In this document: positions 19,613 through 44,605 of the stretch, one piece after another
Layout of the letters: each line of letters starts with the position of its first letter
Position numbering within the stretch: position 1 is the stretch's first letter
Source of the DNA: Shigella phage DS8
Sequence record: MK759854
Length of the DNA: 44,605 nucleotides
Direction: 5' to 3' (one strand)
Position numbers and translations under genes: made by a program
Notes under the pieces: model-generated
The model's database searches: none
What the model was told of the DNA's origin: nothing
The model's input: only the letters and a program-made list of their open reading frames with translations

Positions 19613-20689
19613 CTATGGCATGTCAGGCCAATAAGAGTTGCTTTTAGATCTGTTCTCACTTGGTGCAAGTAATTGCAAGTTATGCCAGCAGTGAAGACCA
19701 CAAACCAATTTGCTATTTATTGGCACTATGTGATCAACCTGCATACCAAGAACGCCAGCCATCTCATAAACCTTTTCAATTAAAACCCTTTCATGTTCAA
19801 ACCATGATGGTATCGCCCGTCTTTTAAGATACTTATATTTACGCTGATGATATCTAACAACACCCTTGTTTTTCTGTCTCCACTGCTTTGACTTCTCGCT
19901 ATGCTTTTCCTTGTTTTTATCGTAATAACGTTTTGATTTTTCATTTATCTCTGCCTTTTTTAATTTATAAATATTTTTCCTGAACTCAGCCTGACATTTT
20001 TTGCAATCAGGACGTAGTCCATCAAGAGATGATTTATTTTTATTAAAGTTTTCTTCGTTCGCCTCAAGAACAGATTTACACTTAGAGCAAATCTTCAATC
20101 CATTACCAAGGTATCTTGCTCTCTTCCCTTTATTACCAGAGCACTTCTTGCATATGGAACTAAAGCCAAGTTTCATACTTTTATCTGCATAAAAGTATTC
20201 GCTTGTAGCTGGAAGAACGGACCTGCATTTTGAGCACATTTTCTCATTTAAAACTTCAGTTGAAATCCTGAGGTTGCATATCCTGTTGTCAGCGCGATTT
20301 TTGTTTATGTGCTCAATTTTCGCATTCCCAATATTATCTCCATTAACATAAATCCATGCGAGTCTTTGCGCCCAATATTGATTGCCATCTATGCTAATTC
20401 TCAGATAACCACTAACATCAAGACAGCCAGCAATATCTCCTACTTTAACACGAGAACCTGTCTTTATCTTACGCGTGAATATCCAAGTATCTGGGTTGTA
20501 ATCAAGAACCTCCCTTAGCCTCTCCTGTGAAATGTGTGACTTTCTTTTGGTTCCTGCATTTTTTAACCCTGCACTTTCCTGAGCAACATTTTGCTTTTGC
20601 AGTTCCGATAAACTCATTTCCGCAAACCTCGCACTTCTTGACGGTGATAGCCATTTCTTATCCTCTATTGTAACGATTAATTGTTTCAT
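19613..20689 (-). CDS. HNH endonuclease with two HNH-type motifs and internal CxxC repeats
   Basis: IEHINKNRADNRICNLR (HNH_3-like) and C-terminal DHIVPINS...HCWHNLQLLAPSENRSKSN; four K-x-C-x-K-C units between them; N-terminal ~60 aa and true start are uncertain. Confidence 0.65.
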   Translation of the reverse strand: MKQLIVTIEDKKWLSPSRSARFAEMSLSELQKQNVAQESAGLKNAGTKRKSHISQERLREVLDYNPDTWIFTRKIKTGSRVKVGDIAGCLDVSGYLRISIDGNQYWAQRLAWIYVNGDNIGNAKIEHINKNRADNRICNLRISTEVLNEKMCSKCRSVLPATSEYFYADKSMKLGFSSICKKCSGNKGKRARYLGNGLKICSKCKSVLEANEENFNKNKSSLDGLRPDCKKCQAEFRKNIYKLKKAEINEKSKRYYDKNKEKHSEKSKQWRQKNKGVVRYHQRKYKYLKRRAIPSWFEHERVLIEKVYEMAGVLGMQVDHIVPINSKLVCGLHCWHNLQLLAPSENRSKSNSYWPDMP

Positions 20690-24069: not shown

Positions 24070-24165
24070 TTCCGCTCCCCAATCAACTATTTCCCCAAAA
24101 TACTACCACCTACTCCCCAGCATTGCAACACAACAAAAGCGTCAAAAGGGGTAAATTGGGTTAAC

Positions 24166-24188
24166 GTGGGGCAACCAACCTGCCCCAC
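24166..24188. promoter_or_regulatory. 23-bp palindrome GTGGGGCA-N7-TGCCCCAC (candidate operator/origin element)
   Basis: Perfect 8-bp inverted arms read directly. Confidence 0.5.
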
Positions 24189-24396
24189 GAAGTTTTACTC
24201 TAAGTATATGTAATATAATATAATTATTATTATTTGGGTTAATGGGTAATATTATTATTCATATTATAGATAAAAATTAACATAATATTAACAAATGGAT
24301 TATTTGAATATGTTTATAAGGGGATGGGTATGAAATCTGCCCCTTTTTACCCACGAAAAATAAAAACATTCAAATCAATGATTTACGATGAAAAGC

Positions 24397-24419
24397 GTGG
24401 GGCAACCGACCTGCCCCAC
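24397..24419. promoter_or_regulatory. second copy of GTGGGGCA-N7-TGCCCCAC, followed by extra CCCCACG half-sites
   Basis: Identical arms; additional ACCTGCCCCACG (24421-24432) and TTTACCCCACG (24441-24451). Confidence 0.5.
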
Positions 24420-24474
24420 GACCTGCCCCACGGGCAAAAATTTACCCCACGAGCACGTTTTTAACGCATTACTG

Positions 24475-24533: not shown

Positions 24534-24719
24534 ATGAAAGAAGAAAGCACGCACAACATCGACCAGATGAAGTTATTCAGCGATATATGCATGGCATTGT
24601 CACAACAGGTTACAAGCCTGCCTGCTGATATGCGCTCAAATGCAATCATTGATGCGGCAAACATGATTTGCGAGGCATATGCGATGACTGAAAATGAATA
24701 TAAGGCTTCGAAGAAATGA
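24534..24719 (+). CDS. hypothetical early protein
   Basis: 61-aa ORF with strong RBS; first rightward early gene. Confidence 0.4.
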   Translation: MKEESTHNIDQMKLFSDICMALSQQVTSLPADMRSNAIIDAANMICEAYAMTENEYKASKK

Positions 24720-38695: not shown

Positions 38696-40575
<1,880 letters not shown>

Positions 40576-40577
40576 TA

Positions 40578-41648
40578 ATGGAAAAGATTATTTTTACCAA
40601 AGACTTGGTAGCCAACTCCGCAGTAGTGGCTGACCAGTGGAAACATCTCACCATCGACCGTAAAGTGTTCTGCAATGCAGAAGCTGAACTGGCGAAAACC
40701 TATGGCGTTAACGCTACCGCACTGGTAACGAAAGATTACTGGCGCGACGTGGACAACGTCACCACCCGTGTTTTCCGCAATGAGGCTGGTCAGGACATGA
40801 TGGCTGACCTGATGGGTATCGCGGCAAACATCAATATCGGTAAAACTGTGGCAATCAGCCGCATTGCTTCTGATGCTGGTAAGGTTGTGCGCACCCTGTC
40901 TGGTCAGGAACCGGAAGATTTGGATAAAACTCGCTACGATTACACTGGCGATGTGATTCCAATCTTCAAAACTGGCTACAGCCGCGAATGGCGCGAGCTG
41001 CTGGGTATGCAGTCTGAAGGTTTTGACCCACTGCTGGACGATCAGGCTAACGTCACCTTTAACCTGCGTTCCGACATGGCGCAGTATCTGCTGACTGGCG
41101 ACCAGACTCTGAACGTGAACGGCGTTTACACTGGCTACGGTATCACCAACCACCCGAACACTGTTCAGGTTAACCTGAACGTTTCCGGTGGCCTGAATAT
41201 CGACCTGCAAACCGCAACGCCAGATGAAATCGTGAAATTCTTCAATCAGGATTTCCAGGCTATTCTGGATGCGCAGAACGTATTTGAGCAGGTGACTCTG
41301 TGGGTTTCCCCGGCAGTGCGTCGCAGCTTCATGCGTCCGTATTCTGATGCGGCAGGCTTCAAAGGTGGCACGGTTGAGCAGTACATCACGCAGTTCGGCA
41401 ATGGTCGTATTGGTAAGATTGGCACCAACTTCCTTCTGACTGGCAACCATTTCGTTGGCTATGTTCGCAACGACATGTACATCCGTCCGCGTGTTGCTCA
41501 ACCTGTTTCCACCTATGCGGCTGCCCGCGACAACCCGCACGATAACTTTAACTTTATGGTGTGGTCAGCTTTCGGTTTGCAAATTCGTAAGGATTTCACC
41601 GGTAAGTCCAAAGTGTTTAACGGCTACGGCACGCAAACTCCGCTGTAA
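40578..41648 (+). CDS. major capsid protein
   Basis: 356 aa; GGAG RBS; size and position (after scaffold and decoration-like genes, followed by terminator) fit a lambda E-like capsid protein. Confidence 0.7.
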   Translation: MEKIIFTKDLVANSAVVADQWKHLTIDRKVFCNAEAELAKTYGVNATALVTKDYWRDVDNVTTRVFRNEAGQDMMADLMGIAANINIGKTVAISRIASDAGKVVRTLSGQEPEDLDKTRYDYTGDVIPIFKTGYSREWRELLGMQSEGFDPLLDDQANVTFNLRSDMAQYLLTGDQTLNVNGVYTGYGITNHPNTVQVNLNVSGGLNIDLQTATPDEIVKFFNQDFQAILDAQNVFEQVTLWVSPAVRRSFMRPYSDAAGFKGGTVEQYITQFGNGRIGKIGTNFLLTGNHFVGYVRNDMYIRPRVAQPVSTYAAARDNPHDNFNFMVWSAFGLQIRKDFTGKSKVFNGYGTQTPL

Positions 41649-41689: not shown

Positions 41690-41887
41690 ATGGCTAAGTA
41701 CGAAGTGATCGCACGAGGAATCTTTGTTAAAGAGAAAGGCAAGATTCGTGAGTTGCAGCTTGGCGAGGTGATTACCGAACCAGACGAGCATCTGCTGCCA
41801 AAACTGCGCATCATGCCAGAACTGGAAAAGTCTTTCGAAGTCGCAACCCCGCAAGAAAAGACGACAAAGAAAAAGAAAGCAGAGTAA
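41690..41887 (+). CDS. hypothetical protein (Lys-rich C-terminus)
   Basis: 65-aa ORF with GAGGTGA RBS. Confidence 0.4.
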   Translation: MAKYEVIARGIFVKEKGKIRELQLGEVITEPDEHLLPKLRIMPELEKSFEVATPQEKTTKKKKAE

Positions 41888-41915
41888 ACAAAACCCGCAT
41901 TATGCGGGTTTTTAT
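41886..41915. terminator. bidirectional rho-independent terminator between convergent operons
   Basis: Hairpin AAACCCGCA-TTA-TGCGGGTTT with a T-run. Confidence 0.65.
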
Positions 41916-41917
41916 TG

Positions 41918-42454
41918 CTACAGACGCATCGGCATAACAACAATCTTCGCAGTCTCGCCAGATGGCGCATTAAGGCAGCAAACGGCGGCATTTGTATTCC
42001 CATTCAATTCAAACTTAACGCCACAGAATTTAGGATTAAACAGCTTCGACACTTTCTCGATATCCACGAGATAACCAGCATTGAAGCCAATTTCCTCTGC
42101 TGCTTTAGTTTCCTTTGGTATCGCGCGGTCAATATCAGGGAATATACCATCAATCTCTTCGCAGATACCAGAACCAACCATCGCGCCAGTTTCATCATGA
42201 TACGTTGCAATTTTCGACTTTGTATCAATGATGGCGTACTCATAACGTTTTGTTGGAGATTTACCAATCTTGATAATCACATTTTCTGTCAGCTTATTGT
42301 CATGACTGCAGCCAATGAATGCGCGATGACCATCAGTTGAGGCAATGCGACCATCAGGCATGAAGCAGATGCCGTTCAGGTAGTAGCGCACATCATTACG
42401 CGCCTTAAATATTAATGCCGACTCAAGTAATAATTTGCTGATTTTTAGTTTCAT
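41918..42454 (-). CDS. truncated beta sliding clamp (DnaN) homolog: domain II plus C-terminal part of domain III
   Basis: 178 aa; colinear with E. coli DnaN from about residue 140 as I recall it: DVRYYLNG, TDGHRA, DG.FPD, EIGFN..Y.LD and the exact C-terminus VVMPMRL; no domain I. Confidence 0.6.
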   Translation of the reverse strand: MKLKISKLLLESALIFKARNDVRYYLNGICFMPDGRIASTDGHRAFIGCSHDNKLTENVIIKIGKSPTKRYEYAIIDTKSKIATYHDETGAMVGSGICEEIDGIFPDIDRAIPKETKAAEEIGFNAGYLVDIEKVSKLFNPKFCGVKFELNGNTNAAVCCLNAPSGETAKIVVMPMRL

Positions 42455-42624
42455 CACTTCACCTTAATCATGTGTTGTTTTGCAACCTTCAGGCATTCTT
42501 CAAAAATGCCACCCTTCTTTGCGCTCTGATTGCGCTTGTAATACTGGATTGCCACATCAATTGCCATCTGGTCGATATCTGGCAGCTTAGCGCGCAGTTG
42601 CTTGACGAGAAAATCATAAACGTT
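42454..42624 (-). CDS. small protein (56 aa), hypothetical
   Basis: Hand-found ORF, GTG start with GGAG RBS 6 nt upstream; TGATG-coupled to the DnaN-like gene. Confidence 0.3.
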   Translation of the reverse strand, partial: NVYDFLVKQLRAKLPDIDQMAIDVAIQYYKRNQSAKKGGIFEECLKVAKQHMIKVK

Positions 42625-43105
42625 CACTTTTTACTCCGTGATTCTCGTGATATCCAGTTGAAGTTTCAGCTTTTTCTCTGGCTGATATTGCATCTTCTTT
42701 ATTGGCAAAAAAACCAATATGCATCTTTGATACATAAGCCCTCCATAACCCACTCTTCCTGTCAAAGCTAACGCCAGTTCTTCCTGATTTGTTATTTTTC
42801 TGCCTGCTGAGATTTCTGTGGTTCTCTATATGGCTCACCAGCCTTAAGTTTTCAATGCGGTTATCATCACGAATATGGTTAATGTGATCAATTTGCATCC
42901 CGTCAGGGATTGGTCCATTAAACATCTCCCATATAATTCTGTGAGCCAAGAACTTTTTGTAATCAACGCATATGATTACATATCCTGTATTTGCAATTGT
43001 CCCAGCTAAAGAGCCACTTAGCATTTTTCTTTTTTGGTGCTTCCACCTAAGCGCCCCATTATCATAATGAAAAATATCACCCCAATTTATTTTAGTTGTG
43101 TTCAT
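42614..43105 (-). CDS. HNH homing endonuclease with AP2 DNA-binding domain
   Basis: IDHINHIRDDNRIENLRLVSHIENHRN (HNH) followed by GVSFDRKSGLWRAYVSKMHIGFFANKEDAISAREKA (AP2-like); ATG 43105 with GGAG RBS. Confidence 0.7.
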   Translation of the reverse strand: MNTTKINWGDIFHYDNGALRWKHQKRKMLSGSLAGTIANTGYVIICVDYKKFLAHRIIWEMFNGPIPDGMQIDHINHIRDDNRIENLRLVSHIENHRNLSRQKNNKSGRTGVSFDRKSGLWRAYVSKMHIGFFANKEDAISAREKAETSTGYHENHGVKSERL

Positions 43106-43914
43106 CACATCTTCTCCAGAATTGCCATAACCTCGTGAATATCAGCAACAGGAATCTGGATAAATTCCTCATCCTCAGCCACCACATGGCCAGCAGGTAG
43201 AATCACGTGGTCTGCTGGCTTCAGTAACTCAATCAGGCGGTCCACTGGCTTAATCTTTTTCGACTTCAGCACCTTTGCTGTGACCTTTTCTTTGCCTTGC
43301 GCCTTCGCTTCTTCTACTGCCTCGTCGATAACTTTAACCGCATCATCGCCATGCTCACGCGTTACCGCTACGGCATTTGCATAGCTGATTTGCCCTGCAC
43401 TGATGCGCGCTTTTACTTCTGCTGGCACATCACCAAGCGACAGATGCATTTGCACGTCAGATACTGAACGACCTACCTTTTTGGCGATTTCTTCATTCGT
43501 CCAGCCAAAGCCTTTCAGTCTCGTGTAAGCCTTTGCACGCTCAAACGGGTCGAGCTGCTTACCCTGGCTGGATGACACCATGAAGGCGATTTTGTCTGCT
43601 TCGTCTCCAGTGAAGTCCTTACACTCAATGCGAACGATTGGTGCGCCGCGCTCAATGGCACGCAGTGCACCGAGATAGCGATGCTGACCATCAAGAATGC
43701 GGATTCCCTTCTCGTCTGGAATAACTGTTAATGCTGGCAATGGCTGACCTGATTCCCAGCACTGCGCGAAATATTCAACGTGCTGCTCGTCTGCTTCGCG
43801 GATGTTGTATCCCGGCTCCAGATAGATTTGCTCAACTGGCACTAGATAGGTTTTGTTAACAGCGATACCGTTGCGCGTTTCTTTGTCTGAATAGATTTTG
43901 CTGAGTGTTTTCAT
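43105..43914 (-). CDS. ParB-like nuclease-domain (ParB/Srx fold) protein
   Basis: IRILDGQHRYLGALRAI matches the ParB N-terminal domain core; ATG 43914 (alternative GTG 43926). Confidence 0.6.
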   Translation of the reverse strand: MKTLSKIYSDKETRNGIAVNKTYLVPVEQIYLEPGYNIREADEQHVEYFAQCWESGQPLPALTVIPDEKGIRILDGQHRYLGALRAIERGAPIVRIECKDFTGDEADKIAFMVSSSQGKQLDPFERAKAYTRLKGFGWTNEEIAKKVGRSVSDVQMHLSLGDVPAEVKARISAGQISYANAVAVTREHGDDAVKVIDEAVEEAKAQGKEKVTAKVLKSKKIKPVDRLIELLKPADHVILPAGHVVAEDEEFIQIPVADIHEVMAILEKM

Positions 43915-43915
43915 A

Positions 43916-44107
43916 TTATTCACCACTTTCTTCTAATAAAAGTTCATAGTTTGCAATGTACGCATTAGCCAGATGATATATTTGCTCTGCGGCACAACGC
44001 TCTGGCACGCTAAAGTCATCAATAGAACCAGCATTGCTGAGTGCATCAACACAATTTCGGAAATCATCCATAGTATTTCGAAACATACAGTAGGACATGT
44101 TTGCCAT
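43916..44107 (-). CDS. small acidic protein, hypothetical
   Basis: 63-aa ORF with GAGGAG RBS. Confidence 0.4.
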   Translation of the reverse strand: MANMSYCMFRNTMDDFRNCVDALSNAGSIDDFSVPERCAAEQIYHLANAYIANYELLLEESGE

Positions 44108-44109
44108 GA

Positions 44110-44370
44110 TTACTCCTCATCACCCTGAAAAATGCCGCCAAACTCTTCTACCAGCTCATCAATACATTGGTCCGCCTCAGCGCAATTACCAGCAGCACAA
44201 AGCAGAATATCAGCCGCCTCATCATCAGGAATGTTGATTGCCGAGAAGAACTCAACAATGCACATTTTCACAACCTGATATTCACCTTCTGTCTGGCATG
44301 ATGCGAAACTGCAAGCGACCGCATCAATCAGCTTGGCTTTGTCATCACTTGGGTTATCAATATCAAACAT
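44110..44370 (-). CDS. small highly acidic protein, hypothetical
   Basis: 86 aa, strongly Asp/Glu-rich; GAGGTGA RBS; first gene of the leftward operon. Confidence 0.4.
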   Translation of the reverse strand: MFDIDNPSDDKAKLIDAVACSFASCQTEGEYQVVKMCIVEFFSAINIPDDEAADILLCAAGNCAEADQCIDELVEEFGGIFQGDEE

Positions 44371-44397: not shown

Positions 44398-44455
44398 TTC
44401 TACGTCATCACTATAAACACACCATCAATCTACGTCAACAGGAATATGCTAAAAT
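44398..44455. promoter_or_regulatory. divergent promoter region: two motif copies and extended -10 TGCTAAAAT
   Basis: TTCTACGTCATC (44398-44409), CAATCTACGTCAACA (44426-44440), TGCTAAAAT (44447-44455); same motif-to--10 spacing as the lysis promoter. Confidence 0.4.
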
Positions 44456-44477: not shown

Positions 44478-44605
44478 ATTTAAACATGGGTTCAACCAAT
44501 TCGCCGTCTCGTTCACGCGCAACTGGCAACACTAAAACTGGCGGCAAAACTGGCGCAGTGAAGCCAAACGGCTCTACCCGCTCACCATCGCGCGGTAAGA
44601 AATAA
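44478..44605. repeat. second copy of the 128-bp terminal duplication (identical to 1-128)
   Basis: Exact identity with window start; contains the small ORF 44486-44605. Confidence 0.9.

Follow-up and report, generated by a model that had tools for sequence, protein, structure and literature searches.

What is a block of six leftward genes doing among the head genes of a virulent phage, and what could its last gene, which resembles a piece of a bacterial DNA sliding clamp, contribute to it? The locus lies in Shigella phage DS8 (sequence record MK759854), whose 44,605 nucleotides, read on one strand and called the window throughout, are the complete genome of a Skatevirus-type virulent siphovirus (Salmonella / E. 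coli). The six genes occupy positions 41918-44370 of the minus strand, and an earlier reading of the letters alone (the sequence-only reading) had taken them for a single host-takeover or anti-defence combination acting on host DNA or the replisome. We found that the last gene, ORF6, encodes a derivative of the beta sliding clamp (DnaN) that, by alignment and structural model, keeps exactly the docking pocket of the clamp and has lost the parts that close the ring. The overall explanation to which we give roughly an even chance is that the block is a host-transcribed, accessory, moron-like operon in which ORF6 would serve as a ring-less module binding clamp motifs and ORF3 as a ParB/KorB-like switch.

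The docking pocket retained in ORF6

When ORF6 was searched with phmmer against the sequences of the Protein Data Bank (PDB), beta sliding clamps were the sole matches (best E 7e-13), with residues 8-171 aligning to beta 136-303 and residues 121-179 to beta 315-366 (E. coli numbering), and its C-terminal VVMPMRL is identical to that of beta. Alignment to constructs of E. coli DnaN (a reference whose length and numbering agree with the PDB alignment) gave a score of 185.5 and 39.5% identity for domain II joined to the C-terminal half of domain III, versus 127 for domain II joined to the N-terminal half, and placed the span of ORF6 at about 129-254 plus 313-366. The AlphaFold2 model of the monomer, computed with a diverse alignment of 131 sequences, reached a pLDDT of 97.0 and a pTM of 0.91; it supersedes a model from a shallow alignment (80 sequences, at least 69% identity), in which the pLDDT was 63.6 and the half-domain was poor. 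Foldseek supports a beta-clamp fold for the model, and matching models from many phages, about 180-210 aa in length (TM 0.8-0.89), are present in BFVD. The description of this gene as a DnaN fragment in the sequence-only reading thus stands, ORF6 being a beta-clamp derivative by sequence and by fold.

Compared with DnaN (PF02767/PF02768, TIGR00663), a three-domain protein of about 366 aa that is acidic, ORF6 has 179 aa, is basic, and is a phage accessory gene product without a clamp loader. It falls far under the family cut-offs, scoring 29.5 bits against TIGR00663 (cut-off 137.65) and 14.9 and 15.3 bits against Pfam DNA_pol3_beta_2 and _3 (cut-off 27). Domain I is absent, as is the first half of domain III, which contains the delta-contact loop and bears the dimer interface (e.g. 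the R103C/I305C cross-link pair, PDB 3PWE), and the alignment therefore lacks both interface-bearing parts of the closed DnaN ring. Also missing is the second helix of domain II, a channel-lining helix: in alignment and model alike, no helix lies between strands 60-64 and 74-78. The isoelectric point (pI) of ORF6 is 8.2, equal to the family median (66% of members lie above 7), as against 5.25 for E. coli beta and 5.6 for the equivalent beta segment. A basic pI is the criterion that Kazlauskas and Venclovas used for ring-less, loader-independent clamp homologues, and clamp homologues with high pI and no loader were proposed to bind DNA directly (PMC3201878).

What has been retained is, judged by residue conservation, the two-subsite pocket for clamp-binding motifs. 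Of the 18 pocket residues of beta (R152, L155, T172, G174, H175, R176, L177, P242, R246, V247, N320, Y323, V344, V360, M362, P363, M364 and R365; PMC11139829), 15 are identical in ORF6, compared with 47 of 139 other aligned positions (Fisher p = 7e-5). The same signal runs through the family. An alignment of 131 members, at most about 50% identical, has no invariant column and 12 positions conserved at 90% or more, nine of which belong to the pocket (ORF6=beta: R24=R152, L27=L155, T41=T172, G43=G174, H44=H175, P107=P242, Y129=Y323, M175=M362 and P176=P363), while the other three (D22=D150, Y26=Y154 and G29=G157) lie within the same 150-157 loop. The dN/dS of ORF6 is about 0.10.

We propose that ORF6 would act as a free-standing copy of the clamp docking pocket: basic, with the dimer interface gone, and forming no sliding ring. 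As the conserved residues and the model suggest, the pocket probably binds clamp-binding motifs of the Q-phi-x-L-F type, whose bearers would be phage proteins or proteins of the host replisome or host repair. In one mode ORF6 would be an adaptor, a loader-independent tether with its basic surface on DNA and its pocket holding a polymerase or another partner, which we regard as possible, if short of probable; in another it would be a decoy competing with the host clamp, which seems to us rather doubtful. The effect would be to bias host Pol III-family traffic toward the phage. The replication genes of the window comprise SSB, ERF, a PDDEXK exonuclease, VRR-NUC, a SNF2-type helicase, a primase and a DUF3987 helicase; the search of the window genes yielded no DNA polymerase, no ORF is left over for one, and none is annotated in the Skatevirus isolate Bas77, so that the phage presumably uses host Pol III. 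The suggestion of the sequence-only reading that a member of the block acts on the replisome is, at least for ORF6 with its retained pocket, plausible.

By way of a tentative generalisation, ORF6 and its thousands of phage homologues may form a new class of host-takeover proteins, stand-alone and ring-less pocket replicas that capture clamp-motif proteins. Candidates for capture would be Pol III alpha or delta, Hda, translesion polymerases, MutS/L and possibly RecBCD, and such proteins, once captured, would be either re-routed to phage DNA with no clamp loader involved or kept away from the host clamp. Twort Gp168 (PDB 7EVP) and Mu C (PMC12867686) are akin to ORF6 in that the network of clamp and clamp-binding motifs is targeted during infection, but both are ligands of the host clamp, whereas ORF6 would be the reverse, a phage copy of the receptor site. 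The herpesvirus processivity factors UL42, UL44, BMRF1 and PF-8, likewise ring-less, consist of two full domains, and each is proven to partner the polymerase of its own virus, whereas ORF6 has 1.5 domains and sits in a phage without a polymerase that we could find. If the proposal is true, it would explain a widespread and routinely mis-annotated gene, and would offer a minimal monomeric scaffold of the clamp pocket, which is an antibiotic target, useful for binding studies.

A separate observation concerns the plus-strand ORF at 24534-24719, the first gene after a promoter at ~24468 that is related to that of the operon. It encodes an acidic protein of 61 aa whose N-terminus, MKEESTHNIDQMKLFSD, contains a canonical QMKLF. 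The motif is kept in Bas77 (Bas77_0084); Salmonella phage Lumpael gp54 (54% identity) has QMALF, and N15 gp42, whose gene adjoins one for a DnaQ-like exonuclease, has QIALV. To go by this motif, the 61-aa protein could bind the host beta clamp or ORF6. Matches of a clamp-motif regular expression in the tape-measure protein, the major capsid protein and the helix-turn-helix (HTH) recognition helix of the ParB-like protein (QMHLSL) were set aside as being at chance level (about 1.5 expected by our own estimate).

Distribution and dispensability of the clamp derivative

ORF6 is the last of six minus-strand ORFs, which our ORF check of the window confirmed at the coordinates of the sequence-only reading:

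ORF1, 44110-44370 (-): 86 aa, pI 4.05, with 21 acidic and 3 basic residues and 6 Cys
ORF2, 43916-44107 (-): 63 aa, acidic, pI 4.15, a variable accessory gene
ORF3, 43105-43914 (-): 269 aa counted from the ATG, an orphan ParB/KorB-type protein
ORF4, 42614-43108 (-): 164 aa, an HNH_3 homing-type endonuclease
ORF5, 42454-42627 (-): 57 aa, basic, pI 9.6, phrog_4439
ORF6, 41918-42457 (-): 179 aa, the beta-clamp derivative, pI 8.2

Two strongly acidic small proteins had been predicted, and ORF1 and ORF2 are just that; the small protein put at 56 aa has 57. All six ORFs have homologues in related phages and in PHROG families, and their pairwise dN/dS against sister phages lies between 0.003 and 0.28; all six are therefore under purifying selection.

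At E<=1e-10 an exhaustive search for ORF6 homologues returned 155 representative clusters, of which about 130 are full-length (160-220 aa), with true DnaNs entering only from E ~1e-11; at E<=1e-5 there are 3951 proteins, and a profile search for deeper homologues mostly recovered the same clade again. By tblastn the family occurs in 291 phage records from many genera. ORF6 matches the PHROG 3007 profile over residues 2-179 (2.4e-61) and shares with that family the length of about 160-220 aa and the 1.5-domain fold. The label of PHROG 3007, 'RusA-like Holliday junction resolvase', has been copied in RefSeq (NC_054646, NC_031918, NC_054637 and others) and is a propagated mis-annotation, contradicted by sequence and fold; elsewhere the homologues are labelled 'DNA polymerase' or 'DNA polymerase III beta subunit'.

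The genes themselves are already known: many genomes have them annotated, and mentions of short polIII-beta homologues go back to 2006 and 2011. Those treated earlier, among them Bcep43 gp15 and SO-1 gp07, belong to the same family as ORF6, being short, basic and without loaders, and were described as covering 'the second and third domains', with no function assigned (PMC3201878). For ORF6 we refine this boundary to domain II plus half of domain III, the retained part being the peptide-binding pocket. In the literature that we searched, no functional study of the short clamp family was found. The anatomy of domain II plus half of domain III, the family-wide conservation, the recurrent antisense position in structural modules and the link to deletion data seem to be new. 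The loci that we compared include the following:

SO-1 (Dhillonvirus) gp07, labelled 'possible moron': on its own in the head module, antisense
WF5505 (Dhillonvirus): also antisense within the head module, with an Nmad5 protein ahead of it
fBC-Eco01 (Kagunavirus): on its own in the head module, antisense
Bcep43 (Naesvirus) gp15, labelled 'DNA Pol III b subunit fragment': on its own in the head module, antisense
PM-CJR (Gorganvirus): within the tail genes, in an antisense island that also holds an ASCH protein
Erwinia phage Gungnir39: in the company of replication genes, its neighbours being a helicase and a cytosine methyltransferase
Vibrio phage 1.115.A: likewise in the company of replication genes

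Among the loci compared, an association of the mini-clamp with ParB was seen solely in Skatevirus and Roufvirus, and in the loci examined from these two groups ORF5 lies directly upstream of ORF6 and is coupled to it.

This distribution bears on the improbable alternative that ORF6 is a genuine processivity clamp, several copies of which (e.g. four of 1.5 domains each) would encircle DNA in the service of host Pol III or another polymerase, with the operon as a replication module. The clamp fold with its polymerase-docking pocket, the failure to find a polymerase in the phage, and the company of primase, helicase and ERF genes that the homologues keep in Gungnir39 and Vibrio phage 1.115.A all speak for such a clamp. 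Set against it are the loss of domain I, of the interface-bearing half of domain III and of a channel-lining helix, the lack of a clamp-loader gene, the basic pI typical of non-ring homologues, the confident prediction of the monomer as a closed unit, and the fact that the gene can be deleted (see below); in the Dhillonvirus, Kagunavirus, Naesvirus and Gorganvirus phages examined, moreover, it stands as an isolated antisense gene in structural modules. We also considered whether the mini-clamp substitutes for a missing polymerase throughout its family and rejected this, as Kagunavirus, Dhillonvirus and Burkholderia phage AH2 carry both polymerase and mini-clamp.

That ORF6 is instead a decaying, functionless fragment of a captured host dnaN is to our minds highly improbable. 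Its identity of about 39% to E. coli DnaN over the aligned parts and its deletability in the laboratory would fit decay, but the size and age of the family, its uniform boundaries and near-invariant pocket residues, the low dN/dS, the confidently predicted fold and the matching models of about 180-210 aa in many phages would not.

In unrelated phages we noted neighbours of the mini-clamp tied to DNA or RNA modification, namely Nmad5 in WF5505 (locus L011, 2676-3440), a Dcm-type enzyme in Gungnir39 (L013, 4081-5196) and ASCH in PM-CJR (L015, 2992-3489), besides a modification-linked gene in Bas77 (L003, 17676-18473), which suggests that the clamp-pocket module could be connected in function with modification enzymes.

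What the phage can spare was examined in seszw, a Skatevirus 89-90% identical to the window at this locus, from which genome-reduced mutants were made by iterative Cas9 editing and their genomes deposited (Yuan et al., PMC9825161); genes deleted in isolated mutants are non-essential by the authors' criterion (PMC9825161). Among 72 seszw-type records that match the locus at 99% identity or more, ParB is present at that level in 70 (Skate ParB stands at 98.8%) and the ORF1 homologue is kept in 70, while the mini-clamp is kept in just 47. Genes 16 (the mini-clamp) and 17 (the ORF5 homologue) are entirely gone from seszw_290S (36.0 kb), and gene 17 from seszw_200L (MZ375333). Because both have been deleted in isolated viable mutants, ORF5 and ORF6 are dispensable for laboratory plaque formation in seszw. 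The sequence-only reading had named deletions without phenotype as evidence that would count against it, and for these two genes the viable mutants provide it in part; for ParB and ORF1 no such losses occur. These two were never lost in the seszw mutants, in a screen that may not have targeted either, and their retention agrees with the strength of selection (dN/dS 0.003-0.02 for ParB and 0.03-0.06 for ORF1, against about 0.10 for ORF6 and 0.23-0.28 for ORF2); both probably matter more to the phage than the clamp fragment does. In seszw_200L the ParB gene (locus L005, 1578-2342) has an in-frame deletion of 15 aa, LGDVPAEVKARISAG, located after the HTH recognition helix and equivalent to ORF3 residues 160-174, which hints that ParB was hit by Cas9 and that in-frame survivors alone were recovered.

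Several points weigh against the explanation that we favour. We infer peptide binding by ORF6, and its targets, from residue conservation and a monomer model, and three pocket residues are substituted (L177A, V247A and V344T); the pocket motifs are moreover the most conserved in DnaN generally, and the signal may partly reflect constraints of the fold. In the large replication proteins of the phage no canonical clamp-binding motif was found, and Kagunavirus fBC-Eco01 and Dhillonvirus SO-1 possess the mini-clamp together with a family-A DNA polymerase. The dispensability of ORF6 in seszw means that it is not a core part of the replisome. For ORF3, iteron and palindrome searches of the genome identified no binding site, and early expression of the operon is deduced from the type of its promoter.

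ORF3, the acidic proteins and the question of anti-defence

ORF3 matches two Pfam families above their cut-offs, HTH_ParB (2e-11, 44.3 bits, cut-off 22.6) and KorB (7e-6, 26.3 bits, cut-off 22.3), and among PDB entries it matches Spo0J (1vz0, 6e-13) as well as ParB (7bnk), Noc and KorB, over residues ~25-225 including the N-terminal ParB fold. The ParB/Srx-fold protein of the sequence-only reading is therefore confirmed in its HTH_ParB and KorB regions, its N-domain being seen just by alignment to solved ParB structures. The protein has a ParB N-domain and an HTH_ParB/KorB domain, followed by about 70 aa of C-terminal region, and this is the canonical layout of the DNA-binding ParB, KorB and Noc proteins; nothing points to the nuclease that the sequence-only reading had suggested. 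An alternative start is possible at a GTG at 43926.

In its three-part architecture and its structure alignments ORF3 is akin to the CTP-dependent switches ParB, KorB and Noc, but it departs from them in several respects. Box II reads DGQHRYLG (DGQHR at residue 75) instead of GERRxRA, the second Arg alone being retained, and Box III reads SSSQGKQL instead of ENLQRxDL; neither a GERR nor an ENLQR motif is present in ORF3. It comes from a virulent phage whose six-frame translation contains no Walker A of the ParA type (KGGxGK[ST]), no ParA is annotated in Bas77, and ORF3 itself has no ParA-binding motif LG[KR]GL. All NCBIfam models scored under their cut-offs (Noc, parB_part and DGQHR), with 39 bits for TIGR00180 (cut-off 58.45) and 16.1 bits for the DndB-like DGQHR-domain model TIGR03187 (cut-off 58.85), with which the motif alone is shared. 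To judge from these features ORF3 is an orphan ParB/KorB-like DNA-binding protein, not a partition system, and because it works without ParA, a role in regulating or organising phage DNA is likelier than one in partition or as a nuclease. In the mechanism that we propose, it would be a sequence-specific DNA-binding switch gated by nucleoside triphosphates (NTPs).

With a dN/dS of 0.003-0.02, ORF3 is the most constrained gene of the operon, differing from its counterpart in the seszw record Seszw_1 by 67 synonymous changes and 1 non-synonymous change. One could thus place ORF3, with ORF1, at the functional centre, as a KorB-like, NTP-gated silencer or organiser of the early-to-late switch or of a replication or packaging compartment, with ORF5 and ORF6 as passengers. 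This is compatible with the explanation that we favour and shifts its emphasis, and we consider it unlikely. The extreme purifying selection argues for it, as do the KorB and HTH_ParB matches, the persistence of ParB and ORF1 in all of about 68 genome-reduced seszw mutants, in which the 15-aa in-frame deletion is the sole ParB lesion, and the copies of TGACGTAGA that bracket the operon promoter (see below). It is countered by the degenerate NTP motifs of Boxes II and III, by a deletion screen that may not have targeted ParB or ORF1, and by the absence of a conserved multi-copy palindrome that could serve as parS: a palindrome search of the whole genome gave no parS-like candidate in multiple copies. 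The palindromic iterons at 24165-24451 were rejected as parS for ORF3, since the ParB of Bas77 is nearly identical and the repeats there differ (TTTACCGG).

Two single perfect 16-bp palindromes are kept in Bas77, GTTGACAGCTGTCAAC at 39841-39856 and TTCAGGTTAACCTGAA at 41164-41179 (about 0.7 expected by chance); both lie inside head genes at most 2.5 kb from the operon and are weak candidates for protein-binding sites. The iteron pattern of 24165-24451 is absent from all related loci compared and from IMG/VR, and because Bas77 has different iterons at the equivalent place, they probably co-vary with a protein other than ParB. They belong to a non-coding region of about 440 bp (24100-24460) between divergent early operons. 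Two copies of the 26-bp palindrome CGTGGGGCAACC[A/G]ACCTGCCCCACG flank the AT-rich core of this region, which has further half-sites and probably serves as the origin or as a hub for binding.

The ParB fold binds CTP, ATP or GTP, and phage versions are often linked to DNA methyltransferases or activate DNA-modifying enzymes (PMC12704722, PMC13229309). As an orphan phage ParB-fold protein with a DGQHR-type motif, ORF3 resembles 5mYOX-associated ParB, ParB-methyltransferase fusions and the DndB/DGQHR proteins, and its homologues in sister phages have a C5-methyltransferase beside them, recalling the ParB-fold partners of modifying enzymes; the methyltransferase cargo next to ParB in Bas77 fits the association of phage ParBs with methyltransferases. 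Modification-associated ParBs, on the other hand, lack the HTH or are fused to the enzyme, whereas ORF3 retains its HTH and the window contains no modification enzyme.

The two acidic proteins are of another kind. ORF1 has relatives in 14 clusters among 5.8 billion proteins, all from this phage group, and has no match in Pfam, NCBIfam or PADLOC, nor in the PDB by sequence or profile; it is a lineage-specific, strongly constrained acidic protein. ORF2, which has no NCBIfam or PADLOC match, and ORF5 proved equally uninformative. Neither ORF1 nor ORF2 matches any PDB entry at E<=1 by sequence or profile, including Ocr, ArdA and Arn, and the guess that they are DNA mimics thus finds no similarity to any solved protein to lean on. 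The label 'anti-restriction protein' of PHROG 14587, to which ORF1 belongs, is unsubstantiated, as we see no basis for it.

An anti-defence or anti-restriction module, with acidic DNA mimics and a ParB acting as nuclease or as helper of protective DNA modification, was the other half of the sequence-only reading, and we judge it improbable. That PHROG label, the small size and strong acidity of ORF1 and ORF2, the ties of phage ParB-fold proteins to modifying enzymes, the C5-methyltransferase beside ParB in Bas77 (with annotations suggesting the same in Bas79 and Bas80) and the Nmad5 and Dcm-type neighbours of mini-clamps elsewhere would all suit it. PADLOC, however, matches nothing in the operon except homing-endonuclease models (the HNH protein) and one marginal DUF499 (ORF5), the acidic proteins lack homology to Ocr, ArdA and Arn, the operon of this window encodes no modification enzyme, and ORF3 has the full HTH that modification-associated ParBs do not. 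There is indirect counter-evidence as well: homologues of ORF1 and ParB occur in the Skatevirus isolates Bas77-81, and the BASEL paper reports a marked sensitivity of these isolates to restriction-modification systems (PMC11990801).

In a metagenomic relative, P0275 (122 aa), an ORF1 homologue lacking its C-terminal tail is joined to an ORF2 homologue of which the C-terminal two-thirds are present; one may read the fusion as an artefact of deletion or as a sign that the acidic proteins act jointly. A 'GGIF' common to ORF1 and ORF5 was dismissed, as it is not conserved (GKIF in a Klebsiella phage).

Operon signals, exchangeable cargo and genome setting

The nearest relative of the phage is Salmonella phage BS5 (Skatevirus), 91.7% identical at the locus. 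An exact 128-bp terminal repeat (1-128 = 44478-44605) leaves 44,477 unique bp, and the genome is circularly closed or terminally redundant. As an antisense island, the operon has the major capsid gene (40578-41648) and a small ORF on one side and, on the other, lipoprotein, membrane-protein and head-tail genes, which continue at the start of the window. Scans of the window with Rfam and for tRNAs were empty.

From promoter to terminator the genes run in one direction, as the sequence-only reading had it. In gene order the junctions are TAA-tc-ATG, TAA-t-ATG, a TGATG overlap, a 14-nt overlap (ORF4/ORF5, where ORF5 starts with GTG behind an upstream GGAG) and a second TGATG overlap; because each is a gap of 1-2 nt or an overlap, the translational coupling that had been claimed is plausible throughout. 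The signals are as follows:

sigma-70-type promoter TTGACG-17-TATAGT, 44438..44410 (-): 10 of 12 matches in a consensus scan, with TTGACG at 44438-44433, a spacer of 17 nt and TATAGT at 44415-44410
TGACGTAGA in two exact direct copies 30 nt apart (-): 44429-44437 (over the -35) and 44399-44407 (just 3' of the -10)
intrinsic terminator AAAACCCGCATAATGCGGGTTTT followed by a T-run, 41912..41890 (-): strong and bidirectional, with a 10-bp stem

The terminator is common to the operon and to the convergent plus-strand gene at 41690-41887, and promoter- or terminator-like matches inside the operon were no commoner than in shuffled sequence. It is plausible that host RNA polymerase would transcribe the operon from its own sigma-70 promoter, antisense to the head genes, up to the bidirectional terminator, and expression would be early if the promoter type is a guide to timing.

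Akin to the morons of lambdoid and other siphoviruses, the operon is a unit with its own promoter and terminator, its coupled genes all pointing the same way; it has been inserted among late structural genes and is partly dispensable. It differs from them in having six genes, in being antisense, in residing in a virulent phage and in including two members that are apparently never lost.

At least five related sigma-70-type promoters could be aligned, at ~44438(-), ~24468(+), ~33190(-), ~5190(-) and ~3160(-), with the consensus TGATTTTA..GTGTTGAC..TG[AG]TGTAGATT; the sisters drive other leftward and early units, including another antisense island among tail genes. The motif TGACGTAGA occurs in five exact copies in the whole window and in 13 at one mismatch or fewer (6.7 expected). 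Its paired copies at the operon promoter could be an operator, but since it also falls within the -35 or -10 of sister promoters, it is largely the extended -35 and -10 of the promoter family. Within that family TGAYGTAGA is found at the -35 and again at the -10/+1 positions, which might point to a common regulator.

The six genes do not form one functional combination, as had been proposed. In Seszw_1, 79 bp of spacer stand in place of the HNH gene (42631-43101) and ORF2 (43915-44097) is missing, and in Bas77 the HNH slot is occupied by a gene for a C5 cytosine methyltransferase of 264 aa; features annotated under the ParB matches of Bas79 and Bas80 also include a DNA methyltransferase, which suggests the same arrangement there. 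Klebsiella phages of the Roufvirus type have a different first gene and extra small genes and retain ParB, the ORF5 homologue and ORF6. By these comparisons the operon is a mosaic with a stable core of ORF3, ORF5 and ORF6, in which ORF2 and the HNH gene are exchangeable cargo.

ORF4 matches Pfam HNH_3 (80 bits, E 1e-22), PHROG 99 and the homing-endonuclease models of PADLOC, and of the HNH-AP2 endonuclease that had been called the HNH part holds, while the AP2 match (12.4 bits) stays under its cut-off of 33.3. The gene is present or absent at a fixed site (rows of 81% coverage among relatives), has a GC content of 0.38 against 0.465 for the genome, and shows a dS to BS5 of 0.09 against 0.32-0.47 in neighbouring genes. 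ORF4 is a mobile cassette and selfish cargo, and because its dS is so far below that of the flanking genes, it appears to be a homing endonuclease that has spread recently. Its insertion replaced the first codons of ORF5 and provides the GGAG-GTG start and a new ORF5 N-terminus. In domain, intergenic insertion polymorphism, low GC and low divergence it resembles the free-standing HNH_3 (often HNH-AP2) homing endonucleases of phages, and apart from an AP2 domain that is just weakly detectable nothing about it is unusual. Seszw_1 has an HNH-type gene of similar size elsewhere, annotated 'AP2 domain protein'. In the window a second HNH_3 ORF, 19613-20689 (-), lies within the replication module and encodes 358 aa with 37% identity to ORF4 over 71 aa, and the genome therefore has at least two homing-type endonucleases.

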